A stretch of DNA of 36,284 nucleotides from contig CAYRTQ010000001.1 of NCBI GenBank assembly GCA_964426865.1, positions 32,513 through 68,796 of the forward strand. The letters are read 5' to 3'. The position numbers and the translations under genes are program-made. A model generated the notes under the pieces. That model did no database searches. It was not told the DNA's origin and saw only the letters and a list, made by a program, of their open reading frames with translations. Position 1 is the stretch's first letter. Each line of letters begins with the position of its first letter. Origin of the DNA: an uncultured bacterium (GTDB lineage Bacteria; Latescibacterota; Latescibacteria; Latescibacterales; Latescibacteraceae). Shown one piece after another: positions 2,325 through 21,659 of the stretch.

Positions 2325-2373
2325 AAATGCCTGACGGCCCCGGAATCAACCCCCGCAAATAAGAGGGTTCCTC

Positions 2374-3660: not shown

Positions 3661-3697
3661 CCATTCTGAAACCGGGATCACCGAAAAGGAGCATTGA

Positions 3698-4921
3698 ATG
3701 AGATCACTGTTTCTCGCTTGTGTCGTTTCTGTTTGTATGATCATCGGCAACTCAACTGCTTCCGCTCAGACTGTTGTGGGAGTTTATGAAAATATCAATA
3801 TGTGGGTGAGTGTCTCTCCGAGCGGAGAAGTATGGAGTTTTTTACGGCAAAGCGGCTCTTACTGGTCGCCGGTTCGATTTGACGGCCACGCGTGGAATGT
3901 GGTAACGGATGAGAAAGGGAATGCCCCGAAGTTCATGTTTGCGATGACACCGTATGTATTTGATGCGGCAGGGAATGTTCTGGCCGGATTTGATGGAGGA
4001 GTTGCCAAATTTGATGGCCGGAACTGGACGATCTACAATGAAAGCCCTACGGGAAATGCCTATTCCCTGGCTATTGCTCCCAACGGTGATCTATGGTACG
4101 GCTCGGATTATGCCATGATATTCAGGATGCATGATGGTGTCTGGACGCAGTTTAAAATGGACGAGGTATTCAACTGGGTGCAATCGATCGCTGTCACGTC
4201 TGATGGTACGGTCTGGGCCGGATTGACCGGAGCCGACTGTTACCGGTTTGATGGCGCTTCGTGGAGTAAACGGGGTCCCCAGGGAGGCCACTCCATGATT
4301 GTTGACCGGGATGGTGTGTTGTGGGCCGCGGTGAACGGGGGAATCGCCCGGTTCGACGGTACCGCCTGGGTTACCAACCAGCCTGCCGATCCTCCTGAAA
4401 ACATGTGGATACAAAGCCTTGCCGCCGGCTGGGATGATGCGATCTGGGTGGCCACTTCCGCCGGTGCATACCGCTTCCGGGATGGGGAATGGACACACTA
4501 TACCACCGATAACGGGCTTCCTTCCAATACCGTCCGGCATATTGCCGCCTCCTCGAACGGACAGGTCTGGTTCGCTACGGATAAAGGATTGGTTCTGATG
4601 GATACCCGTGCAACCTCGGTCGAAGAAAAACAAACCGCGCCTATATCATTCTCTATCCGGGGCAACGCCCCCAACCCGTTCAACCCCTCCACCACCATCT
4701 CTTTCTCCCTCCCCTCCCCCGGGCGGGCGGAACTTTCGGTCTATTCCATCACCGGACAGAAGATCCGCGCCCTTCTCTCCGGGCCGATGACCGCCGGGAC
4801 GCACTCCGCGGTGTGGGACGGACGGGATGACGCCGGGGAAATGGTTTCCTCGGGAGTTTATCTCACGCAACTCCGTTCCGGGAAACAGGTTTCCAGCGGC
4901 AAGATGCTTTTGATGAAATAG
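3698..4921 (+). CDS. Secreted beta-propeller repeat protein with T9SS-type C-terminal sorting domain, paralog 3
   Basis: AAGGAG RBS upstream of the ATG. Signal peptide SLFLACVVSVCMIIGNSTASAQ. Reg_prop-like repeats (VWAGLTGADCYRFDG, LWAAVNGGIARFDG, IWVATSAGAYRFRDGEW, VWFATDKGLVLMD). Same sorting-domain tail; the last ~70 nt match paralog 1 exactly. Confidence 0.85.
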   Translation: MRSLFLACVVSVCMIIGNSTASAQTVVGVYENINMWVSVSPSGEVWSFLRQSGSYWSPVRFDGHAWNVVTDEKGNAPKFMFAMTPYVFDAAGNVLAGFDGGVAKFDGRNWTIYNESPTGNAYSLAIAPNGDLWYGSDYAMIFRMHDGVWTQFKMDEVFNWVQSIAVTSDGTVWAGLTGADCYRFDGASWSKRGPQGGHSMIVDRDGVLWAAVNGGIARFDGTAWVTNQPADPPENMWIQSLAAGWDDAIWVATSAGAYRFRDGEWTHYTTDNGLPSNTVRHIAASSNGQVWFATDKGLVLMDTRATSVEEKQTAPISFSIRGNAPNPFNPSTTISFSLPSPGRAELSVYSITGQKIRALLSGPMTAGTHSAVWDGRDDAGEMVSSGVYLTQLRSGKQVSSGKMLLMK

Positions 4922-5077
4922 CGATGGGGTCCGCACGGATTTCGAAGGAGGCCGGGCGCATTCAACCGGCCCCTTGCATTTTTGGGGAATTGCGGTATAT
5001 TGAATATATTCAGTCAAATACACGCATATTCCCTTGACCGGTTCTCCACCAGCGACCGGACGTTCCCGGAGGTCACC

Positions 5078-5380
5078 ATGCCCGAGATGCACCTGTCCAT
5101 CCCCCATTTCCTCACCAAGGAAGAAGCCCTCTACCGTATGAAGCGCCTCATCGCCGACCTGCGGATACGCTATTCCGAACAGATCGCGGATGCCCATGAA
5201 ACCTGGACGATGAGCCGGGCGCACTTCGATCTCACCGTTCAGGGCATTACGGTCACCGGGAGCCTGGCGGTGGAGGACACCGAGGTGCTCATCGCCCTGG
5301 AATATCCGTCCATTCTCTCCCCATTTAGTTCCCGTATCGAGCGGTCCATCCGCGAGGAAGCGGAAGCGCTCCTGCGATAA
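5078..5380 (+). CDS. Small polyhydroxyalkanoic-acid-system-like protein (PHA_gran_rgn-like, ~100 aa)
   Basis: GGAGG at 5068-5072 precedes ATG 5078. Length and pattern fit my memory of the PHA-system protein family: 'hl..PH.Lt.EEA..R...L...L', then 'W......F.L...G..v.G.l.V' and 'RIE..I..E...LL'. The ORF-track start at 4982 adds an implausible leader. Confidence 0.5.
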   Translation: MPEMHLSIPHFLTKEEALYRMKRLIADLRIRYSEQIADAHETWTMSRAHFDLTVQGITVTGSLAVEDTEVLIALEYPSILSPFSSRIERSIREEAEALLR

Positions 5381-5411
5381 ACCGGGGCGGACAGTATCCC
5401 GGTCCCCCGTC

Positions 5412-5444
5412 TTTCCACCCCGTTCCCCCGGAACGGGGTGGAAA
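5412..5444 (+). terminator. Very strong GC hairpin downstream of the PHA-like gene (no T-run)
   Basis: TTTCCACCCCGTTCC (5412-5426) pairs perfectly with GGAACGGGGTGGAAA (5430-5444) around loop CCC. There is no U-tract, so it may act as an RNA-stability element or a factor-dependent stop. Confidence 0.4.
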
Positions 5445-5640
5445 AGGCCGCTGGAAAATTCCGCACCGCCCGTCGTCCCCTCCCTCCCGCGCCCCCTCTC
5501 CCGCCCCGCCACTCCATCCTTCTTTCCATTCTCTTTCTCCGCCCCACCGTGAAGGGCATCTTTAGCCTTTTTCCTTGATTCCGAAGGGGTAATTTCATAC
5601 CTTGCATATCTTTGAACCGTCTTCAGAAAAGGGGAATCCC

Positions 5641-7291: not shown

Positions 7292-8130
7292 GCCTGACCC
7301 ATCCACTCCATACATACGTCCGCCCCTCGGCATTGCGCACCGCCAACTGTCCGGGCTGCGGCAACGGCATTCTCGCCTCGGCCATCCTGCGCGCCATCGA
7401 TGAGGAACAGCTCTCCCTGGACGACTTCACGTTCGTTTCCGGCATCGGGTGCGCGGCCTGGATTCCCAGCCCGTTCGTCTATTCCGATGTCCTGCACACC
7501 ACGCACGGCCGTCCCATCGCCTTCGCCACCGGGGTGAAACTGGCCGCCCCGGATCGCCGGGTGATGGTGGTTTCCGGTGACGGCGACCTTCTGGCCATCG
7601 GCGGCAACCATTTCATTCACGCCGCCCGGCGCAATATCGACATGACCGTGATCTGTGTAAACAACGGCATCTATGGCATGACCGGCGGCCAGGCCGCCCC
7701 CACCACGCCGCTTGGGCTGAAAACCGCCACCACGCCCTATGGGAGCGTGGAGAACACGTTCGATATCTCCGGGCTGGCCATCGCGGCGGGCGCGACCTTC
7801 GTGGCCCGCTGGACCGTGTACCAGACCCGGCAGATCACGCGGACCATCCGCAAGGCGTTTTCCCATAAAGGCTTCTCCCTCATCGAGATCATGAGCCAGT
7901 GCCCGGTGCAGTTCGGCAGAAAGACCGGACGGGGCAGCGCGGTGAAAATGCTCGATTATTTCAAGGATCAATCCGTGCCGCTGGCGAAAGCCGCCGGGAT
8001 GACCCCGGAGGAACTGGACGGGAAAATCGTGGTCGGGGAGCTGCTCGATATCGAGAAGCCGGTGCTGGATGTGGAACTGGCGCGCCTGCGGGAGCGCCTG
8101 AGAAAGGAGGCGGGGAATGCCGAGAACTGA
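7288..8130 (+). CDS. korB: 2-oxoacid:ferredoxin oxidoreductase beta subunit (TPP-binding)
   Basis: CPGCGNGI motif. TPP motif SGDGDLLAIGGNHFIHAARRNIDMTVICVNNGIYGMTGGQ. The 280-aa size fits Kor-type beta subunits. Confidence 0.9.
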   Translation: MSLTHPLHTYVRPSALRTANCPGCGNGILASAILRAIDEEQLSLDDFTFVSGIGCAAWIPSPFVYSDVLHTTHGRPIAFATGVKLAAPDRRVMVVSGDGDLLAIGGNHFIHAARRNIDMTVICVNNGIYGMTGGQAAPTTPLGLKTATTPYGSVENTFDISGLAIAAGATFVARWTVYQTRQITRTIRKAFSHKGFSLIEIMSQCPVQFGRKTGRGSAVKMLDYFKDQSVPLAKAAGMTPEELDGKIVVGELLDIEKPVLDVELARLRERLRKEAGNAEN

Positions 8131-8659: not shown

Positions 8660-8751
8660 AAATATTGAGCGCCTGAATGCTTCCCTGCATGCGGGCGGTG
8701 CTTGTCTGAAAGAATGAGCGGTCAAACGAGCAAGGAATGATTTTGAGACCT

Positions 8752-8855
8752 GTCTGAACCGGTGATTCGCATGATTCACATGATGAAGAATGATGAAAAG
8801 AAATGCCTTTATCAATCTTTTATCATTTTCAATCATTCGCATCACCGGTTCAGAC
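8752..8855. repeat. AT-rich long imperfect inverted repeat (hairpin or MITE-like) downstream of korC
   Basis: GTCTGAACCGGTGAT (8752-8766) is the perfect reverse complement of ATCACCGGTTCAGAC (8841-8855). The arms extend inward to ~26 bp with 3 mismatches. The ~52-nt AT-rich loop has further self-complementarity (GATGAAAAGA / TCTTTTATC). Confidence 0.6.
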
Positions 8856-9119
8856 CATCTGTTGGTTCGCCGGGCCGTATACTCATCCCGCGAAACCATT
8901 CTTACTCGCTTGCATTGATTTTCGTCTGAAACCGGCGGTACACCCGGTGAACGGAAACGGAACCATGTCCAGACGGATCGGGAAAAACGTACGGAATCCC
9001 CGGAGGCTCCGGTGAACGGCGGTTTCATCCCGACGGTACCGGCGGATGCAAACGAACGGACGAACGCGCTTCCCCGTCCGGAAACGTCACGACAGACGGG
9101 CGGGGGATTCGGCGTGACC

Positions 9120-10841
9120 ATGGAAAGCGATCCGCTGGGATGGGACCTTCGCGAAGGCTTCCGCAAGCGGTTTCCCTTCCTCGCGCTCCCTTTCCAGGTG
9201 GTCGACCGGCGCACCTTCGGGAACCCCGATATGGAGCCGAACCGTCTCATCCTTGGCGACAACCTGCATGTCATGCGCCAGCTTCCGGACGAAAGCATCG
9301 ATCTCATCTACATCGATCCGCCCTTCTTCTCCGGCCGTCACCACCGGGCGGTTTCCGGCGATCGCACGGAACACCGGTCCTTTTCCGATGTCTGGGATGA
9401 CGGCCTGCCCGGCTATCTTGTCTGGCTCAACGCCCGTCTCTTCGAGATGCGGCGTCTGCTGAAAAAAACGGGCAGTCTGGTCGTTCACTGCGATCATCAC
9501 GCCAACCATTACATCAAGGTCGAACTGGACAAAATTTTCGGCCCCGGTCATTTTCGCAACGAGATCGTCTGGTCCTACGACAGCGGGGGAAGGTCGCGGA
9601 ATTCCTACCCGAGAAAGCACGATGTCCTCCTCTGGTTCGCGAAACGGCGACCGTTCTTTTCCCCCGAGGCGGTCGGCATTCCCCGCAACGTGTGCCCCCG
9701 GTGCGGACGGGTCCTGGAGAAGTGGAACAACCTGAAGAAATGCGCCGATGAAACCGGACGGACGTTCCGTACCATACGATCGGCGGGGAAAGTGTACCGG
9801 TATTACGACGACGACCGTGTATGCCCGCCGGATGTCTGGCTCGGCATCAACCATTTGCAGCAGAAGGATCCCGAGCGTATCGGATATCCCACCCAGAAAC
9901 CGGAACAACTGCTCGAACGGGTGATCCGGGGATGGTGTCCGGAAGGGGGAACGGTCGCGGACTTTTTTTGCGGCGGGGGGACAACCCCGGCGGCGGCGCA
10001 CCGGTTGGGAAGACGGTGGATCGCTTGCGACCGGTCGAAAGAGGCGGTGGATGTCACCCGCGACCGTCTGACGCGTCTGGCGGTGGTCCCGGACGACGAG
10101 TCATCCCCCGCGCCGGATTTCACCCTGGAACGTTGGGGCGTCTATGAAACCGCCGATGTTCCGCCCGGAGAACTCCGCGCGTTCATCCTTTGCGCCTTCG
10201 GAGCGGACCGGACGGAAAGCGCGGGGGGCATCGACGGGTTCACGGGCGCTACCCCGCTCTGGCTCGGAGACCCGGACCGGGAAGCAGGGGTGACCGCTTC
10301 GGAGGTGCTGGCTTTCGCGGACGCGGTGCGAAAAACGACGGATGCCGCGCGGAATCCCATGCGAGAGGGTGTCATGCTGGCCCGTGAGTTTCGGGAAGAT
10401 GCGGTCGAAACGGCGGAACGGCTGCGGCTGACTGCCCCGGACAGTCCCGGATGCATGCGGCTGGATCTGGTGCGTGTCGTTTCCCCCCGTTTCGGGGAGT
10501 CCGCCGCCCATGACGGGGATGGGAATTTTCTAACATTTGTTTTTCCCCCGATCGTAGATGTCGAATATGCACTATCCGGCCCCCGCACATTCCGGTTCGA
10601 CGCGGGGGGGACATCGGTCCGGAATCCCGGGGCGAAAATCGTCGCGGTGGCATGGGATTTCGATTATGCCGGGAGCTTCTCCGGCGCTCACCGGCATTCG
10701 TTCGTGAGCGGAAGCGAAGGAGAAGCGGCGGCGGTGGTGGAGCATACGTTCCCCTCGTCCGGAAAGAAACGCTTCGCCTGTCGGGTGCGTGACGATATGG
10801 GCGGCGAGGGAATCCATACCGGGGAAATCGAAGTGAATTAA
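9120..10841 (+). CDS. Site-specific DNA methyltransferase (N4/N6, PF01555-like, beta-class motif order) with long C-terminal extension ending in a PKD-like domain
   Basis: IDLIYIDPPFFSG (motif IV, DPPF) lies upstream of VADFFCGGGTTPAAA (motif I), and PTQKPEQLLERVI is present. The C-terminus VAVAWDFDYAG...VEHTFPSSGKKRFACRVRDDMGGEG..GEIEV looks PKD-like. The start is uncertain: GTG 9012, ATG 9120 or ATG 9231. Confidence 0.8.
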   Translation: MESDPLGWDLREGFRKRFPFLALPFQVVDRRTFGNPDMEPNRLILGDNLHVMRQLPDESIDLIYIDPPFFSGRHHRAVSGDRTEHRSFSDVWDDGLPGYLVWLNARLFEMRRLLKKTGSLVVHCDHHANHYIKVELDKIFGPGHFRNEIVWSYDSGGRSRNSYPRKHDVLLWFAKRRPFFSPEAVGIPRNVCPRCGRVLEKWNNLKKCADETGRTFRTIRSAGKVYRYYDDDRVCPPDVWLGINHLQQKDPERIGYPTQKPEQLLERVIRGWCPEGGTVADFFCGGGTTPAAAHRLGRRWIACDRSKEAVDVTRDRLTRLAVVPDDESSPAPDFTLERWGVYETADVPPGELRAFILCAFGADRTESAGGIDGFTGATPLWLGDPDREAGVTASEVLAFADAVRKTTDAARNPMREGVMLAREFREDAVETAERLRLTAPDSPGCMRLDLVRVVSPRFGESAAHDGDGNFLTFVFPPIVDVEYALSGPRTFRFDAGGTSVRNPGAKIVAVAWDFDYAGSFSGAHRHSFVSGSEGEAAAVVEHTFPSSGKKRFACRVRDDMGGEGIHTGEIEVN

Positions 10842-10906
10842 CCCGCCCGGCTGGTGTAGTCCCGAACCTGACCGGAGTTGATCCGAACGACAGGAGAATT
10901 CAGCCG

Positions 10907-12019
10907 GTGAACGCCCGCCTGCACTATCTCGACAACCTCCGCACCTTCGCGGTCATGCTGGTGCTCCTGCACCACACCGCGATCACATACGGCGCTTCCG
11001 GGTCCTGGTATTACAGCGAGGTGAGCGGGGTTTCGCTCACCGCCGTGATCCTGACCCTGTTCTGCGCGGTCAACCAGGCGTTCTTCATGGGCCTGCTGTT
11101 CTTCATCTCCGGATATTTCACCGCGCCGTCATATGACCGCAAGGGGACGCTCCGGTTTCTCCGGGACAAGCTGGTGCGGCTGGGGATTCCGCTTCTCTTC
11201 TATGCGTTCGTGCTGGGTCCGGCGATGTCCTATTTCCCCCATCACCGGGACTGGACGGTTTTTCTCGAGTATTACCGCACCCGGATACTGACCTTGAAAA
11301 ACATCGGTTTCGGGCCGTTGTGGTTCGTGGAAGCGCTGCTCATTTTCAATTTCGCCTATGTCATCTGGAAGGCGGTTTCCCGGAGCGGAGCGGACGCCCG
11401 GCATAAAGCCTTTCCCTCCAGCCGGTCCATTCTGGCCGCCGCGGTTCTCACCGGGATCGGGGCGTTCTGCCTGCGGCTGGTCTGGCCGTGCGGAGTGAAT
11501 GTCCTGCAAATGCAGCTCGGATATTTCTCGTCCTACGTGGTGCTGTTCGCGCTCGGAATCGCGGCTTTCCGGTACGGGTGGCTGGAGGAAATCCCCGCCC
11601 GGACGTCGCGGACCTGGTCACTCCTCGCCCTGGCTTCGATACTGCTGCTGCCGGTCATACTCGTACTCGGCGGGGCGCTCTCCGGCAATGTCGAACCGTT
11701 CATGGGCGGAATGCACTGGCAGGCGGCGGCCTATTCCCTCTGGGAGCCGTTCGCGGCGTTCGGAATCATCCTTTTCCTGCTGACCCGGTTCCGGAGCTAT
11801 CTGAACCGGGCCGGGGTTCTCCTCCGGGCGCTCTCGGAAAGTTCCTACACCGCGTATATCATCCATCCGCCGGTCATCGTGGGGGTCAGCCTGCTCGCGC
11901 GCGAAGCGTCCGCGCCTCCGATGCTCAAGTTCATGGCGGTCGGAACGTCCGGGGTTGCGCTCTGCTTCGCGCTGAGCTATCTTGTCACCCGTATTCCGGG
12001 GGCCAGACGGGTGCTGTAG
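10907..12019 (+). CDS. Acyltransferase family 3 membrane protein (O-acyltransferase)
   Basis: The N-terminus RLHYLDNLRTFAVMLVLLHHTAITYG is the typical acyltransferase_3 signature. Roughly 10 hydrophobic segments. GTG start. Confidence 0.8.
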   Translation: MNARLHYLDNLRTFAVMLVLLHHTAITYGASGSWYYSEVSGVSLTAVILTLFCAVNQAFFMGLLFFISGYFTAPSYDRKGTLRFLRDKLVRLGIPLLFYAFVLGPAMSYFPHHRDWTVFLEYYRTRILTLKNIGFGPLWFVEALLIFNFAYVIWKAVSRSGADARHKAFPSSRSILAAAVLTGIGAFCLRLVWPCGVNVLQMQLGYFSSYVVLFALGIAAFRYGWLEEIPARTSRTWSLLALASILLLPVILVLGGALSGNVEPFMGGMHWQAAAYSLWEPFAAFGIILFLLTRFRSYLNRAGVLLRALSESSYTAYIIHPPVIVGVSLLAREASAPPMLKFMAVGTSGVALCFALSYLVTRIPGARRVL

Positions 12020-12146
12020 GGGTACGGATAAAGGGACAAAGGGGAAAGAGCCGGACCGGGATTCTGGCCGGGATGGAAAGGGGGCCGGAGAAGGGAATGA
12101 GACCCGGCGCGGCAAGCAACGAAAATATACCCGGAGAGAAAACGGC

Positions 12147-12947
12147 ATGCATGGAATCATGAGAACAACCGGTGTTTTCCTTCTCGCGGCGGCGTTCGCG
12201 TTCGGAGTCCGGGCGGAAGGCAAAAACGGAACCGCTCCGGCGCGGACCGGGACAAAACCGGAAAATACCGCGATCATTCCCGTTCCCAAGCTGGAGAACG
12301 ATTTTTATGACTGGTATCAGCGTCATGAACAGGTGAAGGAGCAGATCGGGAAACAGTCGGTCGATCTCGTTTTCATCGGCGATTCCATAACCCACATGTT
12401 CGGGGGAACGCCGCGCTCGGATATCGTCCACGGCGGAGCGGTATGGGACAAGTATTACCGCGGGCTGAACGCGGTCAACATGGGATTCGGATGGGACCGC
12501 ACCCAGAATGTCCTCTGGCGGCTCGAAAACGGGGAATTCGAGGGGATTCAGCCGAAAGTCGCGGTGCTCCTGATCGGTACGAACAATCTCACCGGCACGG
12601 AGAACGCCCGCGAGAATTCTCCCGCCGAAATTGCGGAAGGGATCGAGGCGATCTGTGAGACCATCCACGCGAAAGCGCCGGAATGCCGCATACTCCTGCT
12701 CGGAGTGCTCCCACGCAGCCCGGTTAAGTTTGTCCGCCCGATACGGGACATCAATCGGCGCATCGCCCGTCTGGATGATAAGGATTACATCACATTCCTG
12801 AATTTCGGCGGGAAGATCGCCGCCCCAAACGGCCTTCCCCGGAAAGAATTCATGTTCGAGGACGGCGTGCATCCCAACGAAAAAGGCTACCGGATATGGG
12901 CGGAATCGATGGACGCCACGTTGAAAAAGCTGCTCTCGGGGAAGTGA
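12147..12947 (+). CDS. Secreted SGNH/GDSL-family hydrolase (esterase/deacetylase-like)
   Basis: Signal peptide MRTTGVFLLAAAFAFGVRA. Block I FIGDSITH, block II-like GFGWDRT, block III LLIGTNNL, block V DGVHPNEKGY. A GGAGAG RBS precedes ATG 12147. The upstream part of the tracked ORF (from 11982) is low-complexity and overlaps the previous gene. Confidence 0.8.
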   Translation: MHGIMRTTGVFLLAAAFAFGVRAEGKNGTAPARTGTKPENTAIIPVPKLENDFYDWYQRHEQVKEQIGKQSVDLVFIGDSITHMFGGTPRSDIVHGGAVWDKYYRGLNAVNMGFGWDRTQNVLWRLENGEFEGIQPKVAVLLIGTNNLTGTENARENSPAEIAEGIEAICETIHAKAPECRILLLGVLPRSPVKFVRPIRDINRRIARLDDKDYITFLNFGGKIAAPNGLPRKEFMFEDGVHPNEKGYRIWAESMDATLKKLLSGK

Positions 12948-13007
12948 CCCGGCCCTGATCCCATCGTATAGACCGAAACCAAACCATCGCACCAATGGGG
13001 GAGTTCC

Positions 13008-15182
13008 ATGCGGCCAAGCATTTTTGCCTCCAACGCACTCATCTGTCTGGCAGTTCTTTCTCTGACCCTCGCGACCGGCGGTTCCGCTTTCGCCCAAAAG
13101 ACGGATATGGACACCATCACCTGGCGGGCGGATGCCGAAAAGATATACGACACCGGGTTCATGCACATGGTGCGGAAAAACCCGGAAGGGGGAATCTGCC
13201 TCTGGAACGCCGAAGTGGTGGAGAACGACTCCCCCGGCGCGGGATACAGCCAGAAAGGGGTATACGAGGATGCGGTCTGGGGATCCAACCGGGCGCGCAA
13301 GATTCTCACCCTCGACGATCCCCGCGCCCACAGGGCGGCGCTCTATGTTTTCCCGGACCGCCGTAATCCGTCCAATCCTCTGACCATCTCGGTGAACGGG
13401 CATCGCGGGAAGGTGGACAACAATCCGCTCCAGGGCTGGGAGAACGCGCGCTGGACCGATATCCCCCCCGAGTGGCTGAAGAAGGGGGAAAACGTCATCG
13501 AACTTTCCTGCCCCGAGGCGCAGAAGGAAGGTGACGGCTGGAATCTCCAGATCGCCCGCGCCGACGAGTACGCGACTGGCGGCGGCGATCCGAAAGATGT
13601 GGGGAAAACCTCGTTCAAATCCACCGACAACGGCAAATCATGGAAGGAAAGCCCCTTCGGCCCGGAGGGCAGGGACCGCGCCGAATACAGCGTACGGCTG
13701 GGGCTGGAACGCTCCGTGCGCTCGGGATGGCTGGCAAGCCCGGTCATCGACCTCTGGCGCGGGGACCGCGACGATCCCATCGCCCGGGCGCGCACCATTC
13801 GCGCTTTCCGCTTCTCCGCGCTCTCCACCGTCCCCCCGGGAACCTCGGTGCAATGCTATATCCGCAGGGGTTCCAGCCCAAACCCGTATTCGGATGAATG
13901 GGAGGCCTACGAACTCGCCGGAAGCGGCCCCTCGATCAATGTCGCGGTCGATGGCGCGAAATTCAACCGCCGCTTCTTCCAGTTCAGGATGGAACTCTCC
14001 ACCGGGGACCCGCTGGTCACTCCCACGGTCAAATCCGCCGAGCTTTCCGCCGATTTCCGCGAGGATTTCCCGGTGCCGCTCCACGGCAACCTGTTCGTGA
14101 CCGAGAGTTACAACCCGACAGTGCGGTATCCCTCGGTGAACTGGGAATGGGAAAAGTGGGACCGTCCGGAATTCGCCCGTCTGCGCGCCCAGGAAAACCT
14201 GGACGCCCTGGTGTCCGGCTGCCGCACCGAGCTGGAGGCCCAGATGAAACTCCTCGATTACGCCGCCAAGCGCTGGCGCTGGACGAACCCCAACATGGAA
14301 TATCCGGGATGGGACGCGCTCTCCATCGTGAACCGCATCAACAAGGCCGGCGGGGGCGGTATGTGCATCCAGGAGAACCTGTTCCTGGTGGGGATGTGCA
14401 TGGCCTACGGCTGGCAGGGACGGCTTATCGGGGTGGACGCCCACGAGGTCTGCGAAATATGGAACGACGAATACGCCAAGTGGATCTATTTCGACGCCTT
14501 TTTCCCCAACCACATCCTCTGCGACCCGAAAACCGGTGAACCGCTCAGCTTCCTCGAAATCCACGACCGGTACATGGACTATTTCTATCCGGACACGGCC
14601 ATGGACTGGGCGACCACGTACCGGCTCGGGACGGAGGCGTTCAAGGATCGCGCGGACAAGCCCCCGGTGATACGCAGTTCGCTCACCTACCACGACCATG
14701 CCCAGAACGCCTACACCGGGTTCATGGAGTCCCGCATCATGCGCATGCTTCCGAGGAACAACTTCTACGAAAAGCCGACTCCCCGTCCGCTGGCCCACGA
14801 CCGCGGCGGGTACCTGTGGCAGGGCTATGTTTCCTGGTATGACGCGAAAACCCCGCCCCGCGGCTGGTATCGTGAACACACCGACCGTTCCCGCGATCTC
14901 TGGCCCGACCTGAACACGGTGCATATCACCACCACCCAAGGTTTCGGCAACGAGAACCTGTTTCTCGAATTCGAAACCTACGCCCCAAATTTCAGCCACT
15001 TCGAGGTGAATACCGACCATACCGGCTGGAAGAAAACCGAGGAACGCTGGACCTGGCGTCTGGTCCCGGGCCGTAACGAGGTCGAGGTCCGCGCGGTGAA
15101 CAAGCTGGGAGTGGGCGGAAAGCCCTCGCGGCTGGTGGTGAACAACGTGGCGATGCCGTTCCAGGAATGGGATATCAAATAG
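13008..15182 (+). CDS. Secreted 724-aa protein with transglutaminase-like cysteine-protease core and one BNR/Asp-box
   Basis: Signal peptide ICLAVLSLTLATGGSAFAQ. Asp-box STDNGKSW. Transglutaminase-like Cys..His..Asp arrangement: GGGMCIQENLFLVGMCMAYGW...VDAHEVCEIWNDEYAKWIYFDAFF. Confidence 0.6.
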   Translation: MRPSIFASNALICLAVLSLTLATGGSAFAQKTDMDTITWRADAEKIYDTGFMHMVRKNPEGGICLWNAEVVENDSPGAGYSQKGVYEDAVWGSNRARKILTLDDPRAHRAALYVFPDRRNPSNPLTISVNGHRGKVDNNPLQGWENARWTDIPPEWLKKGENVIELSCPEAQKEGDGWNLQIARADEYATGGGDPKDVGKTSFKSTDNGKSWKESPFGPEGRDRAEYSVRLGLERSVRSGWLASPVIDLWRGDRDDPIARARTIRAFRFSALSTVPPGTSVQCYIRRGSSPNPYSDEWEAYELAGSGPSINVAVDGAKFNRRFFQFRMELSTGDPLVTPTVKSAELSADFREDFPVPLHGNLFVTESYNPTVRYPSVNWEWEKWDRPEFARLRAQENLDALVSGCRTELEAQMKLLDYAAKRWRWTNPNMEYPGWDALSIVNRINKAGGGGMCIQENLFLVGMCMAYGWQGRLIGVDAHEVCEIWNDEYAKWIYFDAFFPNHILCDPKTGEPLSFLEIHDRYMDYFYPDTAMDWATTYRLGTEAFKDRADKPPVIRSSLTYHDHAQNAYTGFMESRIMRMLPRNNFYEKPTPRPLAHDRGGYLWQGYVSWYDAKTPPRGWYREHTDRSRDLWPDLNTVHITTTQGFGNENLFLEFETYAPNFSHFEVNTDHTGWKKTEERWTWRLVPGRNEVEVRAVNKLGVGGKPSRLVVNNVAMPFQEWDIK

Positions 15183-15206
15183 CATTACGCCGTACCTCAT
15201 CCCCGT

Positions 15207-15230
15207 CCCTTCTCCTGGTCAGGAGAAGGG
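15207..15230 (+). terminator. Perfect 10-bp hairpin after the transglutaminase-like gene
   Basis: CCCTTCTCCT (15207-15216) pairs with AGGAGAAGGG (15221-15230) around loop GGTC. No clear U-tract. Confidence 0.45.
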
Positions 15231-15491
15231 TGACTCGTTCGGAGCGGCGGTTGCACAAATCAAGAAGCTTACTGCGACACAGAGTATTACCTTTTTCTTA
15301 ACGTACAAGGGCGGCCGTGGGTCGGGTGAGGTGAGCGCTCATGAGTCGCATACGTTCGAATGTATACCGAACGAGCAACTCCCGGCAGTATATTCCGGGC
15401 GAACCAGGAGAAAAGGCTGTTTCTTTCTCGCCGGAGCAATAACTCGGGCGCTTTGGCATTCAGGCACTTATTTATCCAAACGGACCTATTC

Positions 15492-16631
15492 ATGAAACTT
15501 TTCGAACACGAAGCAGCGGACATTTTCGCGGGAATGGGCATCCCCGTTCCCGAACGCATGATCGCGCACACCCCCGATGAGGCGAAAGCCGCCGCGGCGC
15601 AGCTCGCCGGGCCGGTGGTGGTGAAAGCCCAGGTGCTCTCCGGCGGGCGCGGACTGGCAGGCGGAGTGAAACCCGCCGCGGACCCGGAAGAAACGTACGC
15701 GGTCGCGGAACGCATCCTCGGGACGAGCATACGGGGCCTTCGGGTAAACAAGGTTCTGGTGAGCCGTCGGGTGGAATTCGATACGGAACTCTACCTGGGC
15801 ATCACCGTGGACGGTTACGCTGGAAAACCCATTGTGGTGGCGTGCAGCGAGGGCGGCATGAGCATCGAGGAGGTGGCGAAGCACTCCCCGGAGAAAATCG
15901 CCTCCCTGCATGTGGACGTGAACCGCGGACTTTTCGCCTACGAGGCCCGGAAGCTTCTCAAAAACGCATCCTTCCCCGCGAAACAGATTCCCGCCTGCGC
16001 GGATATCCTGGTGAAACTCTACCGCACCTTCCGTCGGCTGAACGCTCTCATCGCGGAAATCAATCCGCTGGTGATCGGCTCCGACGGATCCCCGCTGGCG
16101 CTGGACGCCAAGCTGGAAGTGGACGATTCCGCCCTTTACCGCATGGAGAACCGCTTCCCGAAGGAACGGGCGAAGGAGCGCGACGAAAGCCCCCTGGAGC
16201 GACGGGGCCGCGAAATCGGCGTAACCTATGTTGAACTGGACGGCGATATCGGGCTCATTTCTTCCGGCGCCGGGCTGGGCATGGCCACCATGGATATCAT
16301 CGGGCGGAAACTCCGTCCCGCGAACTTTCTGGAAACCGGCGGCGGCATCACCGCGGACCTTCTCTACAACACCATGGACCTCATGCTCTCCAAACCGGGG
16401 CTGCGCGCGGTGTTTGTCAATCTCTACGGCGGCATCAACCCCATCCACGAGGGGGCGAAAGGTATCGTGCGCTACATCCAGGAGCACAATGTCTCCATTC
16501 CCATCGTGGCCAAAGCCCTGGGGAACCGTCAGGAGGAAACCTGGGAAATTCTCCGCTCCGGAGGCGTCCATGTGGTGACCGACGTGGCGACCGAGAAGGC
16601 GGTGGAGAAGCTCTTCGAACTGGTGGAGTGA
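15492..16631 (+). CDS. sucC: Succinyl-CoA synthetase (ADP/GDP-forming) beta subunit, ATP-grasp
   Basis: The N-terminus MKLFEHEAADIFAGMGIPVP..VVVKAQVLSGGRG matches the canonical SucC start (MNLHEYQAK..GVPVP..VVKAQV..GGRGK). The 380-aa length fits. The tracked ORF start at 15360 adds a non-homologous leader. Confidence 0.85.
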   Translation: MKLFEHEAADIFAGMGIPVPERMIAHTPDEAKAAAAQLAGPVVVKAQVLSGGRGLAGGVKPAADPEETYAVAERILGTSIRGLRVNKVLVSRRVEFDTELYLGITVDGYAGKPIVVACSEGGMSIEEVAKHSPEKIASLHVDVNRGLFAYEARKLLKNASFPAKQIPACADILVKLYRTFRRLNALIAEINPLVIGSDGSPLALDAKLEVDDSALYRMENRFPKERAKERDESPLERRGREIGVTYVELDGDIGLISSGAGLGMATMDIIGRKLRPANFLETGGGITADLLYNTMDLMLSKPGLRAVFVNLYGGINPIHEGAKGIVRYIQEHNVSIPIVAKALGNRQEETWEILRSGGVHVVTDVATEKAVEKLFELVE

Positions 16632-16918
16632 GGAGCCGTAGCACCGCCATCGCGGCCCTACCGCTCACCGCCGCGGCGAAGCATTCAGGTTCTCCCGTCG
16701 CGAACACCGGGCCGGGAGACGAGCCGAAACGGCTCTCTCCAGTACATGGGCACATCCTCCATGCTGGAACGCCGGGAGAGAAGTTTGGAGACCGCGCGCA
16801 CAATGGGGTATTGAAAAGGGCTTCCCAAACAGATATCACCGAAGCATATTATCCGTAAAGCAACGGATCGAATGTTCCTATCGCGCCCTTGAAATGAAGC
16901 GGCAGACAAGGTTTTCCC

Positions 16919-18010
16919 ATGAGTACGCTGACTCGCATATCCATTGAAAACTTCAAGTCGATCAAAATACTCACTCTCGACCTGAAACCCATGAATATCC
17001 TGATCGGGGCGAACGGCGCGGGAAAGTCAAACTTCGTCGGAGTTTTCAAATTCCTCAACGAACTGGTGGAAGGGAACCTTCAGACCTATACCGGCAGACA
17101 GGGGGGGGCGAACAGCATACTGCATTTTGGGCGGAAGCAATCAGAAAGCCTGTCAATACAGTTAAGTTTCGATGAAAAAATAGAGTATGACTGTATCCTC
17201 GCACCAACTGTCGCAGACAGTTTCGTGTTTCATAATGAAACGGTTTATCGACCGAATACTGATACTGGTGGGAAAGACTGCCATGTATATCATTCAGGAA
17301 ACGGATATCTGGAATCGGAAGTTTCACTCGATACGCAATGTGACCCCGATACCAAATATATTCGAGCATATTTAAAAAGCTGGAAAATCTTCCATTTCCA
17401 TGATACAAGCGAAAGCGCCACCATAAAACAAACCGGCGGCATCGAAGATAATCACTCCCTCCGTCCCGATGGCGGCAATCTGGCGGCATTTCTTTACATG
17501 CTCTCCAAACGATATCCCGGACAGTACGAAAACATCCAGGATTCCATTCGCCTTGTTGCACCATTCTTTGACCGTTTTGTTCTCGAACCTTCCCGGTTGA
17601 ACCCGGACAAGATACGGCTTGAATGGAAACATAAAGGGACGAGCGATTATTTCAATGCCTCTTCCCTTTCGGATGGCACGCTTCGTTTCATGTGTCTTGC
17701 CACGCTCCTTTTGCAGCCGGAATTGCCCTCGATCATTCTCCTGGATGAGCCGGAACTTGGACTTCATCCATATGCGGTGAACGTCCTCGCAAGCCTCTTG
17801 CGGTCTGCATCGAAAGATTCACAAGTTATCGTCGCGACACAATCCGTTACCCTGGTGAATCAGTTCGAACCGGAAGATATCGTTGTTGTGGATCGCGACG
17901 AAGAGCAGAGCACGTTCCGCCGTCTGGAGAAATCTCAGATATCCGAATGGCTTGAGGAGTATGGCCTCGGCGACCTTTGGGAAAAGAACATCCTCGGAGG
18001 GCGTCCCTGA
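16919..18010 (+). CDS. ABC/SMC-like AAA ATPase (AAA_21/AAA_15-like), part of a low-GC inserted cassette
   Basis: N-terminus ISIENFKSIK..LDL..MNILIGANGAGKSN (Walker A). LSDGTLRFMCLATLL (signature-like). IILLDEPELGLHP (Walker B/D-loop). VIVATQS (H-loop region). GC is markedly lower than in the flanks. Confidence 0.85.
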   Translation: MSTLTRISIENFKSIKILTLDLKPMNILIGANGAGKSNFVGVFKFLNELVEGNLQTYTGRQGGANSILHFGRKQSESLSIQLSFDEKIEYDCILAPTVADSFVFHNETVYRPNTDTGGKDCHVYHSGNGYLESEVSLDTQCDPDTKYIRAYLKSWKIFHFHDTSESATIKQTGGIEDNHSLRPDGGNLAAFLYMLSKRYPGQYENIQDSIRLVAPFFDRFVLEPSRLNPDKIRLEWKHKGTSDYFNASSLSDGTLRFMCLATLLLQPELPSIILLDEPELGLHPYAVNVLASLLRSASKDSQVIVATQSVTLVNQFEPEDIVVVDRDEEQSTFRRLEKSQISEWLEEYGLGDLWEKNILGGRP

Positions 18011-18013
18011 ATC

Positions 18014-18667
18014 ATGAAAAAGGTGTTGATTCTTGTCGAAGGGCAAACGGAAGAAACCTTCGTGAATTGGGTCCTTTATGAACATCTTTATGGTCGAGAT
18101 ATACTTATTCTCCCGATAATCGTGACGACAAGGAGAGATGTCGACGGAGTGAAACATAAAGGCGGCTATATAAAATACGGTACAGCAAAAAAAGAGGTCC
18201 TGAGATTGCTTGGTGACAGCAGCGCCGACCTCGTGACAACCATGTTCGATTATTATGGACTTCCCGACGATTTCCCCGGTCGCACGAACATCGTCGGTGA
18301 TCCACACGAGAAAGTGTCAATAGTCGAGACCGGATTTAATCAAGATATCAACAACCCCCGTTTTTCCAGTTTTTTCTTCCTGCATGAGTATGAAGGATTG
18401 CTGTTTTCTTCACCGCCGGTTATCGCACAGGTCATGAATGAACCGAACAAAGAGCCGATTCTGAACTGCATCAGAGCATCTTTCCGGACTCCGGAAGATA
18501 TCAATGACAGCCCGGAAACCGCGCCCTCAAAGAGAATACGCAAAGAATTTCCAAAATATGAAAAGATTTTTCACGGAGCGACTATCGCCAGCCGCATCGG
18601 GCTTTCCACCATTCGGAAGGAATGCCCTCACTTCAACGAGTGGCTGAATCGAATTGAACGCCTGTAA
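18014..18667 (+). CDS. DUF4276-like protein (putative Toprim-like nuclease partner of the ATPase)
   Basis: The ATG lies 3 nt after the ATPase stop. 217 aa. N-terminus KKVLILVEGQTEETFV, then TTMFDYYGLPDDFPG and FFLHEYEGLLFS. This fits my recollection of the DUF4276 family, which is about 190-220 aa with a conserved Glu. Confidence 0.6.
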   Translation: MKKVLILVEGQTEETFVNWVLYEHLYGRDILILPIIVTTRRDVDGVKHKGGYIKYGTAKKEVLRLLGDSSADLVTTMFDYYGLPDDFPGRTNIVGDPHEKVSIVETGFNQDINNPRFSSFFFLHEYEGLLFSSPPVIAQVMNEPNKEPILNCIRASFRTPEDINDSPETAPSKRIRKEFPKYEKIFHGATIASRIGLSTIRKECPHFNEWLNRIERL

Positions 18668-18700
18668 ACTATAACATAAATCGGGAACTGAAGCCTTCTC

Positions 18701-19561
18701 ATGTCCATACTTCTCAATCGCAAGACCAAGGTCCTCGTGCAGGGGATCACCGGAAAGATCGGCAGCGTCCAGACCCACTGGATGAAGGAATACGGCGCCA
18801 ATATCGTGGCCGGGGTCACCCCGGGCAAGGGCGGCGGCGAAATCGAGGGCGTCCCCGTGTTCGACTCGGTGGACGAGGCAGTGCGGGCCACCGGAGCGGA
18901 AGCGTCCGTGTTCTTCGTCCCGGCCTCGGGCGTGCTCGATGCCTTCTTCGAGACGGTGACCGCGGGCGTCGGGCTCATCGTGGTGGTGCCGGAGCATGTG
19001 CCGGTGCACGATGTCATGCGGATGCGCGCGTTGGCGGAGGATATGGGGGTGTTCGCCCTCGGCCCCACCACGCCGGGCATCCTCACCCCCAACGAGGCCA
19101 AGATGGGCATCATGCCCGCCTCCCTCTTCACCCCGGGACGCATCGGCATCATCTCCCGGAGCGGAACCCTGGCCTACGAAATGGCCGGAATCCTCAGTGA
19201 TTCCGGGTACGGCCAGAGCACGGTGGTGGGAATGGGCGCGGACCCGGTGTCCCTCACCACGCTCACCCACATTCTGGAACTCTTCGAACACGACCCGGAC
19301 ACCGGTTCCGTGGTCATTGTCGGCGAGGTCGGCGGCGCGCAGGAAGAGATTGCGGCGGAGTACATCTCCAGCCACATGACCAAGCCGGTGGCGGCCTATA
19401 TCGCCGGACGGTTCGCCCCCGAGGGCAAGCGCATGGGCCACGCCGGAGCCATCGTCCGGGGGAATGCGGGAACCTACGCCGGGAAATGCGCGATACTCGC
19501 CGAAGCAGGGGTAAAGGTGCTGGAAACGCCGATGGATGTGGTGGAGTGGGCGGCGTCATAA
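18701..19561 (+). CDS. sucD: Succinyl-CoA synthetase alpha subunit
   Basis: MSILLNRKTKVLVQGITGKIG, SRSGTLAYE, and the catalytic His motif GKRMGHAGAIV. Confidence 0.9.
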   Translation: MSILLNRKTKVLVQGITGKIGSVQTHWMKEYGANIVAGVTPGKGGGEIEGVPVFDSVDEAVRATGAEASVFFVPASGVLDAFFETVTAGVGLIVVVPEHVPVHDVMRMRALAEDMGVFALGPTTPGILTPNEAKMGIMPASLFTPGRIGIISRSGTLAYEMAGILSDSGYGQSTVVGMGADPVSLTTLTHILELFEHDPDTGSVVIVGEVGGAQEEIAAEYISSHMTKPVAAYIAGRFAPEGKRMGHAGAIVRGNAGTYAGKCAILAEAGVKVLETPMDVVEWAAS

Positions 19562-19562
19562 G

Positions 19563-19695
19563 CGCCTGCGGCGCGTCATATGCGCTTCGCGCGTCAGTAG
19601 GGGCTTCGCCCCGTCATTGGCGCTTCGCGCGTCAGGTGCGCCTGCGGCGCGTCATTGGCGCTTCGCGCGGGATTGGCGCCCTGACGGGCGCGTGA
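19563..19695. repeat. Left arm: tandem array of 7 GC mini-hairpins spaced by GTCAnnn (alternating 18/20-bp period), inverted copy of 20254-20407
   Basis: Units GCGCC-TGC-GGCGC, GCGC-TTC-GCGC and GGGGC-TTC-GCCCC are each followed by GTCA(nnn). Core 19590-19670 is the reverse complement of 20292-20372 at 80 of 81 positions. Confidence 0.85.
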
Positions 19696-19796
19696 GAACC
19701 GTGGGAGATACGGCGGATTTCCCTTTCTCTGCTAAAAAGGCCGGTGATTTCATCCACTTTTTCCCAAGAGCATCCACTCATTCCCGAGAGCGCGAT

Positions 19797-20192
19797 ATGG
19801 AAATCGGCAAGAAACTGGATGATTTGCAGGTCTACCGGCTCTCGCTGGAAATCGGGGAATCGATCTGGCGCATTGTCGCCCGCTGGAGTTACTTTGAAAG
19901 GGACACCATCGGCAAGCAACTGGTCCGCGCGGCGGATTCCATCGCGGCGAACCTGAGCGAGGGATATGGGCGTTTCCATTACAAGGAAAACAAACAGTTT
20001 TGCTACTACTGCCGCGGGTCGATCTTCGAGACGGTCACATGGATCAACAAGGCGCGCCGCCGCGGTCTCGTTTCGGAAGACGAATACATCGACATCCTTC
20101 AGAAACTCCGGTCCCTCACGATCAAGGTGAACCGGTATATTCAATCCATCGGACGGGAATCGGGGAAAACACCTGAACACTTTCCCGGATAA
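19797..20192 (+). CDS. Four-helix-bundle protein (23S rRNA intervening-sequence protein / Avd-like family)
   Basis: DLQVYRLSLEIGESIWRIV.....FERDTIGKQLVRAADSIAANLSEGYGRFHYKENKQFCYYCRGSIFETVTWINKA is the characteristic pattern of this family. 131 aa. Confidence 0.8.
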   Translation: MEIGKKLDDLQVYRLSLEIGESIWRIVARWSYFERDTIGKQLVRAADSIAANLSEGYGRFHYKENKQFCYYCRGSIFETVTWINKARRRGLVSEDEYIDILQKLRSLTIKVNRYIQSIGRESGKTPEHFPG

Positions 20193-20253
20193 TCGTTTCC
20201 AAACCTGAAACACATGACAGAAGCCGCCCTTCATAACCGCGCCGAAACCTCTT

Positions 20254-20407
20254 CTGACGCGAAGCAAATGACGCGTCGCAGACGCTTATGACGCGCGAAG
20301 CGCCAATGACGCACCGCAGGCGCACCTGACGCGCGAAGCGCCAATGACGGGGCGAAGCCCCTACTGACGCGCCGCGGCGCTTCTGACGCGCGAAGCGCTC
20401 ATGACGG
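20254..20407. repeat. Right arm: inverted tandem array of 8 GC mini-hairpins (TGAC-spaced)
   Basis: Its reverse complement reads GTCAnnn plus hairpin, eight times. The 81-nt core 20292-20372 matches 19590-19670 with one C/T difference. It ends about 30 nt before the next gene's ATG. Confidence 0.85.
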
Positions 20408-20435
20408 TTCACGTTCCTTGCAACAGGAGTTGTAC

Positions 20436-21659
20436 ATGTCCTTTCCCAGAATGGTCAAAATCCGTCAAATCTTCGACCGGACCCGCATCGAGGATATAGA
20501 AGGCGAACTCACTTCCCGCATCGTGGCTTCCGGCCTGCTTTCCCGGGTCCGGCCCGGCATGCGGGTAGCGGTCACCGCGGGCAGCCGGGGCATCGACCGT
20601 ATCCCCCGGATATTGAAAACGGTGATCGGGCTGCTCCGGGAGGCCGGAGCGACCCCCTTCATCATCCCGGCGATGGGATCCCATGGCGGCGGCGCCGCAC
20701 AGGGACAGATCGAGATGCTGGAGAGTCTCGGCATTACGGAAGCGGGCATGGGCGTTCCGATTGTATCGTCCATGGAGACGGTCATCCTGGGCGAGACTCC
20801 TTCCGGCGCGCCGGTGCACCTGAACCGGGTCGCGATTGAGGCCGACGGCATCGTGGTGATCAACCGGGCGAAACTGCACACCGCGTTCCACGGCCCGGTG
20901 GAGAGCGGGATGTGCAAAATGGTGGCGGTGGGCCTGGGCAAGAAGAACGGCGCCGAAACCATGCACAAGTACGGCCTCGGGGGGGTAATCACCGAAACGT
21001 TCCGCACGGTCCGCGACACAACGGGCAAAATCCTTTTCGGCGTGGGCATCCTGGAGAACGCGTTCGATGAGACATTCGACATCCGGGTGGCCGCGCCGGA
21101 AGCGTTCGAGGAGGTGGATCACGCCCTGCTGGAGCGCTGCCGCGAGCTCATTCCGCGCATCCCGGTGCGGGAATTCGATATCCTCATCGTGGACGAGATG
21201 GGGAAAAACATCTCCGGAACGGGAATGGACACCAATATCATCGGGTTCTGGCGACGTTTCGGCGGTGAGAAGATCCCGGATTACAAAACCCTCATTGTCC
21301 GCGATCTCACCGAAGCGAGCCACGGCAACGCCATGGGTATCGGGTTCGCCGATCTCATCCCCCGCCGACTCTTCGAAAAGATTGACCTGAAAGCCACGTA
21401 CACCAACGGCATCGCGTCCAATACCTGGTCCATCGTCCGCATTCCCATCACCCTGGAAAACGACCGCGAGTGCATCGCAGTCGCGCTGGAAAAGCTCTCT
21501 TCCGGCCCGGCGAGAGTGATTCGCATCCGTAACACCCTCGCCCTCGATGCATTGCAGGTTTCGGAGAGTCTGCTCGACACGCTTTCCGGAAGGCCGGATA
21601 TCGAGGTTCGGGGAGAACCGGAAGAGATGACCTTCGATTCCGGGGGGAATCTGATCTGA
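20436..21659 (+). CDS. Conserved protein, possibly LarA-N/DUF2088-like domain protein (function unknown)
   Basis: AGGAG lies 6 nt upstream of ATG 20436. Coding-like composition and conserved-looking blocks (VAVTAGSRGI, IIPAMGSHGG, IVVINRAKLHT, ILIVDEMGKNISGTGMD). The family assignment comes from memory only. Confidence 0.35.
   Translation: MSFPRMVKIRQIFDRTRIEDIEGELTSRIVASGLLSRVRPGMRVAVTAGSRGIDRIPRILKTVIGLLREAGATPFIIPAMGSHGGGAAQGQIEMLESLGITEAGMGVPIVSSMETVILGETPSGAPVHLNRVAIEADGIVVINRAKLHTAFHGPVESGMCKMVAVGLGKKNGAETMHKYGLGGVITETFRTVRDTTGKILFGVGILENAFDETFDIRVAAPEAFEEVDHALLERCRELIPRIPVREFDILIVDEMGKNISGTGMDTNIIGFWRRFGGEKIPDYKTLIVRDLTEASHGNAMGIGFADLIPRRLFEKIDLKATYTNGIASNTWSIVRIPITLENDRECIAVALEKLSSGPARVIRIRNTLALDALQVSESLLDTLSGRPDIEVRGEPEEMTFDSGGNLI

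Follow-up and report, generated by a model that had tools for sequence, protein, structure and literature searches.

Several anti-phage systems combine an ABC ATPase with a Toprim-family nuclease, among them OLD, Gabija and PARIS. HEC-01 (Hma-embedded candidate 01), which Payne et al. 2024 described from inside Hma systems, likewise pairs an ABC ATPase with a TOPRIM-like protein, and its metal site is conserved with that of BpOLD (10.1101/2024.01.29.577857). Here we describe a pair of this kind in a stretch of 36,284 nucleotides (the window) from an uncultured bacterium of the Latescibacteraceae, phylum Latescibacterota (assembly GCA_964426865.1, contig CAYRTQ010000001.1, positions 32,513 to 68,796), where two genes lie between sucC and sucD, which encode the subunits of succinate-CoA ligase. 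The second gene product belongs to DUF4276. In an analysis of Menshen systems, DUF4276 and RloB were placed in the Toprim superfamily as predicted effectors, Mad4 of MADS was recognized as a DUF4276 homolog, and the DUF4276 catalytic residues were stated to be present (PMC12065111). In the PARIS paper, DUF4276 is one of the partner domains marked on a tree of AAA15/21 ATPases (PMC11464382). Within MADS, mad5 could be deleted only along with mad2 or mad3, from which the authors inferred that loss of mad5 alone is lethal. No biochemical mechanism for HEC-01 is defined in the papers cited here, and on their evidence a first-pass annotation of the window, made from its sequence, still holds in saying that the pairing of an ATPase with DUF4276 has no experimentally defined one.

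The insert between sucC and sucD is a copy of HEC-01

The two ligase genes are separated by 2,069 bp (16632-18700), and the coordinates given in the first-pass annotation for sucC, sucD, both intervening open reading frames and a gap of ~2.07 kb were all correct. Its premise that sucC and sucD normally abut also agreed with the loci that we fetched, with gaps of ~0-120 nt in ~20 loci from several phyla. Both inserted gene products matched the HEC-01 models of PADLOC-DB (v2) from end to end: the upstream protein (HEC-01A) aligned with PDLC04175 over residues 2-363 (model positions 4-362 of 363) and the downstream protein (HEC-01B) with PDLC04188 over residues 1-217 (model positions 12-226 of 230); E-values are given in Table 1. 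Profile searches likewise bore out the earlier domain calls, with AAA_21, AAA_15 (1.6e-16) and SMC_N (2.1e-14) found in the ATPase and the complete DUF4276 profile found in its partner (179 bits, where the gathering threshold is 30.2; all 192 profile positions aligned). The pairing is therefore already a catalogued candidate defence system, and the block is a copy of HEC-01 rather than a new class. The proposal that the block is a defence candidate thus gains from the match of both proteins, whereas the module that it called uncharacterised is not uncatalogued: HEC-01 is in PADLOC and has been tested twice, once without defence and once with protection.

HEC-01A also gave weaker, partial PADLOC matches to mad3 (3.7e-31), AriA (4.7e-28), Old and GajA (both ~1e-20) and PtuA, all of which reflect the common ABC ATPase core. 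For the second protein, the PADLOC matches were confined to HEC-01B models and the Pfam matches to DUF4276, a family with 4,998 protein clusters at 50% identity (E up to 1e-3). The gene order is that of published HEC-01, with the ABC ATPase first and the small TOPRIM-like protein second; however, the window copy sits inside a tricarboxylic acid (TCA) cycle operon of a Latescibacterota host rather than inside an Hma defence system. PARIS, too, is a two-gene pair, whose ABC ATPase is of AAA_15/21 type and whose small Toprim-family nuclease is a protein of its own, but its AriB is a DUF4435 protein, while the window encodes DUF4276 without any AriB model match; moreover, AriA chains have 464 residues, making HEC-01A ~100 residues shorter, and the AriA match covers the ATPase core only. 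MADS shares a Mad3 that HEC-01A resembles, together with the DUF4276 homolog Mad4 (PMC12065111), but the NCBIfam model antiphage_MADS3 scored 122.5 bits, far under its cut-off of 420, and the pair is flanked by sucC and sucD with no other MADS-type genes beside it. A MADS-like link to the window's only DNA methylase gene (9012-10841) was considered and rejected, in view of this low score and because the gene lies 6 kb upstream behind three unrelated genes. Menshen NsnC variants carry DUF4276 as a C-terminal domain; here it stands alone, outside any type I restriction-modification or Menshen context.

The pair is a long-standing resident of the sucD site

Including the window, six lineages carry the cassette directly upstream of sucD, the others being L013 (a Candidatus Latescibacter metagenome-assembled genome), L030, L031, L032 and L041; sucC lies on the cassette's other side in L013 and L032 as well. 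SucD is 84-90% identical among the window, L013, L030, L031 and a cassette-less relative, L002, while that of L032 shows 82-87% identity over its 68 residues and that of L041 76% over the first 91. SucC of the window and L013 are 76% identical. Within this clade the ATPases are 68-90% and the candidate nucleases 62-71% identical, the latter range becoming 62-87% once P0004, which lies outside the context comparison, is added. The spacer between the HEC-01B gene and sucD measures 27-35 nt and is recognisably homologous in all six lineages. HEC-01 pairs that lie elsewhere (L014, L033) are less closely related, and a large protein database contained seven relatives of the window nuclease at 62-67% identity, with the next at ≤57%. 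The cassettes at the sucD address form a subfamily of their own.

Compared with the usual gene arrangement, the block is inserted DNA, as first proposed, because two more distant relatives (L003 and L015, SucD 73% identical) have overlapping or abutting sucC and sucD genes without a cassette, and the ~20 loci from other phyla have the two genes nearly abutting. The simplest reading is a single insertion at the base of this Latescibacterota clade. From then on the cassette stayed immediately upstream of sucD, with at least one loss, in L002, and it is the linkage of the cassette to sucD that is conserved. L002 is the closest relative by SucD (90%), and a DUF362-like gene precedes its sucD; in L031 the whole cassette lies between an ortholog of that gene (76% identical) and sucD, with the ATPase gene first, and L002 is thus the cassette-less counterpart of L031. 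A precise excision scar was sought by comparing the two but could not be read; because their spacers do not align, the mechanism of the loss or gain is not readable either.

The first-pass annotation had taken the low GC content of the block as a sign of foreign origin, and a recent horizontal insertion of foreign DNA into an intact sucCD operon of this genome would account for the strong contrast in composition. The hand counts behind that view hold (41.7% GC for 17161-17220, 71.7% for 15541-15600), and the block as a whole has 48.9% GC against 59.6% for the remaining window, where the lowest value of any other 2-kb interval is 55.1% (standard deviation 2.1%). GC at third codon positions (GC3) is 0.51-0.53 in the cassette genes against 0.61-0.85 in the window's other probable genes. 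The empty site in more distant relatives also suits a recent event. Critically, however, at four-fold degenerate sites most lineage pairs agree in just 32-58% of codons (up to 71-73% for the closest), in host and cassette genes alike, so that synonymous sites are largely saturated; and in every lineage cassette GC3 (0.35-0.55) remains below that of the flanking host genes (0.63-0.86). Since the deficit persists despite this saturation, low GC does not date the insertion. The earlier annotation had also held that relatives with the same genes at host-like GC would mark them as ancestral operon members: relatives do carry the genes, but their GC is not host-like.

Signs of mobility were also lacking. 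No integrase or transposase genes were found, the window contains no tRNA genes that could serve as integration targets, and no terminal direct or inverted repeats flank the cassette. A 17-nt repeat (D1, 16611-16627 and 17054-17070) was taken as chance because it lies off the cassette boundary. As for carriage by phages, only two viral contigs had distant homologs, with nucleases 42-43% identical. Together with the six diverged lineages, the homologous spacer and the separate subfamily, the absence of mobility and tRNA genes and of flanking repeats largely refutes a recent arrival, which we consider very improbable; the cassette is a long-standing resident of the sucD site.

HEC-01 pairs elsewhere mostly have lower GC than their surroundings, and the persistent deficit means either that the genes are kept AT-rich or that alleles keep coming from a circulating pool. 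Such a pool has direct support from the comparison of the window with L041, whose ATPases are 90% identical and whose nucleases are 67% identical. Nucleotide identity between the two loci falls from 86% to 47% at ~18050, a mosaic which indicates that recombination has mixed ATPase and nuclease alleles.

The conserved linkage to sucD, together with the SMC_N/RecF-like signature of the ATPase, might instead mark the pair as domesticated operon members with a housekeeping role in succinyl-CoA synthetase or DNA maintenance. Homologous pairs, however, occur in unrelated contexts: some neighbour argJ or a RACo gene, some follow aconitase genes, and one lies in a block with TIR, PycTM and VapBC genes. 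The two genes lie side by side wherever else a full-length pair was examined, and 10 other loci show the same 3-nt gap or an overlap between them. L002 and the outgroups manage without the pair, and its atypical composition persists, so a housekeeping role rather than defence is scarcely credible.

HEC-01A and HEC-01B retain predicted ATPase and nuclease sites

The ATPase motifs lie where the first-pass annotation had placed them, with GANGAGKSN at residue 30, LSDGT at 250, ILLDEPELGLHP at 273 and VATQS at 305. The Walker A segment (G30-N38, with K36), signature residues S251-D252-G253 and Walker B residues D276-E277 are invariant in eight homologs, as is Gln308 of the VATQS motif. By contrast, residues ~95-150 are poorly conserved, and between lineages the N-terminal 145 residues are 54-65% identical against 79-88% for the C-terminal 218. 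A run of eight G residues (17101-17108) lies within the ATPase gene at codons Q61-G62-G63-A64. Phase variation through this tract was considered and rejected: the run is specific to this genome, and other runs of seven or eight G residues occur in the window. It is thus probably no phase-variation tract.

In HEC-01B, the motifs KKVLILVEGQTEETF (residue 2), DYYGLP (79) and HEYEGLLF (124) were likewise located as first described. Six residues (E9, G10, E13, H124, E125 and E127) never vary among 68 homologs, and D79 does so only rarely. A confident AlphaFold2 model (predicted local distance difference test score 90.1, predicted template modelling score 0.86) contains strands at 2-8, 30-36 and 73-79 and short strand-like stretches at 117-122, alternating with helices. 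The first strand is directly followed by E9-G10, which is the position of the Toprim-type glutamate. In Foldseek searches the top three PDB matches of the model were C-terminal (Toprim) regions of Xanthomonas OLD (probability 0.96-0.97, template modelling (TM) score 0.37-0.40, E 2e-3 to 4e-3), and the top viral match was an RloB-like protein (TM 0.48, probability 1.00). The Toprim-like reading of the first-pass annotation is therefore in line with the literature and finds weak backing in the fold searches; an assignment of HEC-01B to the Toprim fold is plausible and fits the literature, although the model itself lends it little weight.

Taken together, these features are consistent with the following account, which we think is probably correct: the block is a two-gene HEC-01 module, in which an ABC ATPase is translationally coupled to a DUF4276 nuclease and gates it, and which descends from an old insertion linked to sucD. 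By analogy, an oligomer of the ATPase would hold or gate the nuclease, as in PARIS; in OLD and Gabija the ATPase likewise gates the nuclease. The variable ATPase insert (~95-150) would sense a phage cue, and ATP binding or hydrolysis would release or activate the nuclease, which would then cut nucleic acid (tRNA or DNA) and so stop the infection. Its metal site would be formed by E9 and E13 plus D79 and/or H124-E125-x-E127. An ATPase-gated Toprim nuclease is thus the mechanism that we infer for HEC-01 from PARIS or OLD.

The same components could also act in the manner of OLD or Gabija, as a constitutive ATPase/Toprim complex that nicks or cleaves invading DNA under nucleotide regulation and releases no tRNA nuclease. 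Here the solved-structure matches are relevant: those of HEC-01B are OLD Toprim regions, as described above, and the solved structure that HEC-01A matches best by sequence is that of an OLD-family ATPase (6p74, 4e-7), in line with its PADLOC matches to Old and GajA. However, these PADLOC matches are all partial and confined to the ATPase core. The OLD and GajA models describe fused, single polypeptides of 536-623 positions, whereas the window encodes two separate proteins, as PARIS does with AriA and AriB, and among the open reading frames of the window no gene for a helicase partner was seen beside the pair. We regard such a complex as unlikely, and an ATPase that gates a separable nuclease remains our preferred account.

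A number of observations weigh against this account. A literal DxD after the third strand of HEC-01B is absent, as strand 73-79 ends in D79-Y-Y-G with no second aspartate; H124-E125-x-E127, which follows the next strand-like stretch in the model, may supply the acidic pair. The likeness of HEC-01B to Toprim folds is weak (TM 0.37-0.48, E ~2e-3 to 5e-3), and a sequence-profile search of solved structures with HEC-01B returned no Toprim chain and nothing meaningful. In HEC-01A, Gln308 occupies what we take to be the site of the H-loop histidine expected from related ATPases, and the hydrolysis cycle may therefore differ. In L041 the nuclease gene is intact, but the ATPase gene (443-1533), the one most similar to that of the window, has a frameshift near codon 117, which reflects either decay or a mistake in the assembly. 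Long retention at one address in a housekeeping operon is also less typical of defence genes. Finally, Payne et al. detected no defence when E. coli with their HEC-01 representative was challenged with a panel of phages (10.1101/2024.01.29.577857). A cold-seep study of 2026 reported that one HEC-01 representative protected E. coli B from at least one of T7, T5 and T4, but this positive report is a single plaque assay with another representative (PMC12881386).

The negative result, and the retention of one address through deep divergence, would also be expected of a selfish addiction (toxin-antitoxin-like) module, kept by its toxicity and by a trapped position where most deletions would harm sucD expression, any benefit against phages being slight or absent. 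In Pfam, AAA_21 is characterized as a putative AbiEii toxin from a type IV toxin-antitoxin system, and the kor-suc cluster of L013 is similarly interrupted by small MNT/HEPN and PDDEXK_3 genes of low GC. Against this stand the positive plaque assay and the loss of the pair in L002, whose intact sucD shows that such a loss is possible. Furthermore, the variable ATPase insert and the shuffling of alleles look like the evolution of an immune sensor, and homologous modules lie inside the proven defence systems MADS, Menshen and Hma. An addiction module is accordingly a distinctly improbable explanation, and we retain the defence reading of the HEC-01 pair.

Layout and expression of the cassette

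The features of the block and its flanks are listed in Table 1. The sucC gene ends with TGA (16629-16631), the HEC-01A gene ends with TGA at 18008-18010, and the HEC-01B gene begins with ATG at 18014 on the same strand, leaving 3 nt between the two.

Table 1. Features of the sucC-HEC-01-sucD region, in window coordinates
Feature	Position	Strand	Basis
sucC (succinate-CoA ligase beta subunit, upstream host flank)	15492-16631	+	Pfam ATP-grasp_2 3.6e-58 and Ligase_CoA; NCBIfam PRK00696 9e-107
GC-rich part of spacer, starting with GGAG (16632-16635)	16632-16760	.	65-75% GC, host-like (40-nt steps)
Gene remnant, last 17 codons (MLERRERSLETARTMGY, then stop)	16761-16814	+	DNA alignment of window and L041
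AT-richer leader of ATPase gene, with ATATTAT-like motif (16846-16852)	16815-16918	+	Alignment of upstream regions
HEC-01A, ABC-type ATPase, 363 residues	16919-18010	+	PADLOC PDLC04175 8e-148; Pfam AAA_21 1.1e-28
HEC-01B, DUF4276 protein, 217 residues, putative Toprim-like nuclease	18014-18667	+	Pfam PF14103 1.6e-52; PADLOC PDLC04188 6.2e-78
Spacer between HEC-01B gene and sucD (AACATAAATCGGGAA...)	18668-18700	+	Homologous across cassette-bearing lineages; sucD without Shine-Dalgarno sequence
sucD (succinate-CoA ligase alpha subunit, downstream host flank)	18701-19561	+	NCBIfam PRK05678 2e-107

The drop in GC begins at ~16790-16830 and not directly after sucC, the first 120-130 nt of the spacer being host-like. 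This first part (16632-16760) resembled none of the fetched loci and had no Rfam match, and the whole 287-nt spacer between sucC and the ATPase gene matched L041 alone among all fetched loci. The gene represented by the remnant is intact upstream of the ATPase gene in L041; a tblastn comparison of the two gave 70.6% identity over 17 residues with an E-value of 0.023, which is weak on its own. The predicted RNA fold of the 287-nt spacer was not significant (z = -1.9). An Rfam scan of 15000-21000 (E up to 1) yielded one chance match to a snoRNA-like model (19626-19700, 24 bits against a gathering threshold of 40), which falls within an inverted-repeat arm of the element after sucD that is described below.

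The cassette is co-oriented with sucC and sucD, and a scan of 15200-20500 found no terminator-like site in the stretch from the end of sucC to the first codon of the ATPase gene, nor in that from the end of the nuclease gene to sucD, so it can be read through from the sucCD transcript. Counts of promoter and terminator consensus sites in the same interval were not above shuffled expectation; within the block the only matches were a weak 7-pair terminator-like site (17206-17222, in the ATPase gene) and two promoter-like sites matching at 9 of 12 positions, on the + strand. The cassette may also own a weak promoter. An alignment of the upstream regions of four lineages showed ATATTAT in the window and L031, ACATTAT in L013 and no clear counterpart in L032, and this motif is a possible candidate for the cassette promoter; the leader that contains it (16815-16918) has no match to the sigma-70 consensus.

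In most lineages GGAGG lies 11-13 nt before the HEC-01B start codon, within the conserved GGRP codons of the ATPase gene, a placement that fits translational coupling of HEC-01A and HEC-01B. The first-pass annotation had further taken the GGAG directly after the sucC stop for the orphaned ribosome-binding site of sucD. The motif is present, but as a 4-mer it is too short to weigh against chance, and no member of the clade has a Shine-Dalgarno sequence before sucD, nor do several relatives with an empty site. Because sucD lacks one both with and without the cassette, the argument from an orphaned site carries no weight.

Other accessory genes around the kor-suc cluster

A further element (19553-20407) follows the pair's downstream neighbour, starting 9 nt before the sucD stop and ending ~10 nt before the next gene. 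It contains a 23S_rRNA_IVP/four-helix-bundle gene (19794-20192; PF05635, 1.2e-24) between long inverted repeats (19589-19678 and 20283-20372), whose 90-nt arms are 94% complementary, lie 604 nt apart and hold three 38-nt tandem units each. There is no room for it in L013, where sucD and the following gene overlap, and just ~60-130 nt are available at this site in L002 and L003. This IVP element is a second, independent insertion, and its layout recalls the intervening sequences of rRNA genes.

Upstream, ~6.8 kb separates korG from sucC (8660-15491), while in L003 the kor genes directly precede sucC. The methylase gene considered above (9012-10841) belongs to this block; its product is a 609-residue N6/N4 DNA methyltransferase (PADLOC MTase_II 9e-58), and no restriction gene lies close to it. 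The block also encodes an acyltransferase, a GDSL lipase and a 724-residue protein without a Pfam match (13008-15182). The region between the ferredoxin/kor genes and sucC in L013 holds the PDDEXK_3 and MNT+HEPN genes already mentioned (1508-1909 and 4836-5557), with 40-43% GC. Farther away in the window (987-4921) are three consecutive paralogs of 445, 428 and 407 residues, each ending in a FlgD Ig-like domain, two of the three with Reg_prop propeller repeats.

Two other loci differ at the sucC/sucD junction itself. L016, a Latescibacterota-like metagenome contig, carries an RNase HI gene there (7543-8004; 153 residues, Pfam RNase_H 8e-45), whose stop overlaps the sucD start. In L017 sucC and sucD are separated by 245 nt (430-673) with hairpin-like repeats rich in G and C (ccccctttcc...gggggggcaag; ccttccccctctgggggaagg), which may be a small repeat element. 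With HEC-01, the RNase HI gene of L016 and the repeat spacer of L017, the sucC/sucD junction is variable in the phylum. More broadly, the junctions of the kor-suc TCA cluster seem recurrently to host small accessory genes, of HEC-01, RNase HI, MNT/HEPN, PDDEXK_3 and IVP type.

Significance of a HEC-01 pair in a central-metabolism operon

The main value of this analysis is to correct the record: the pair is an instance of catalogued HEC-01, found at an unusual and long-held sucCD address. A strong GC deficit can outlast saturating synonymous divergence, so low GC alone is no proof of recent acquisition. The locus also provides diverged natural alleles of HEC-01 from an uncultured phylum, and their variable ATPase segment and allele shuffling can guide mutagenesis and the search for a trigger.

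A tentative extension, which we hold to be possible but doubtful, is that the sucD-proximal site is a fixed-address immune locus. HEC-01 would be anchored in a central-metabolism operon that offers a safe harbour through operon transcription and essential flanks, and its alleles would be swapped by homologous recombination among Latescibacterota. If so, allele exchange would also explain the persistently low GC, and embedding in a housekeeping operon would be a strategy by which defence genes persist, a counterpart to the embedding within defence systems that has already been published.

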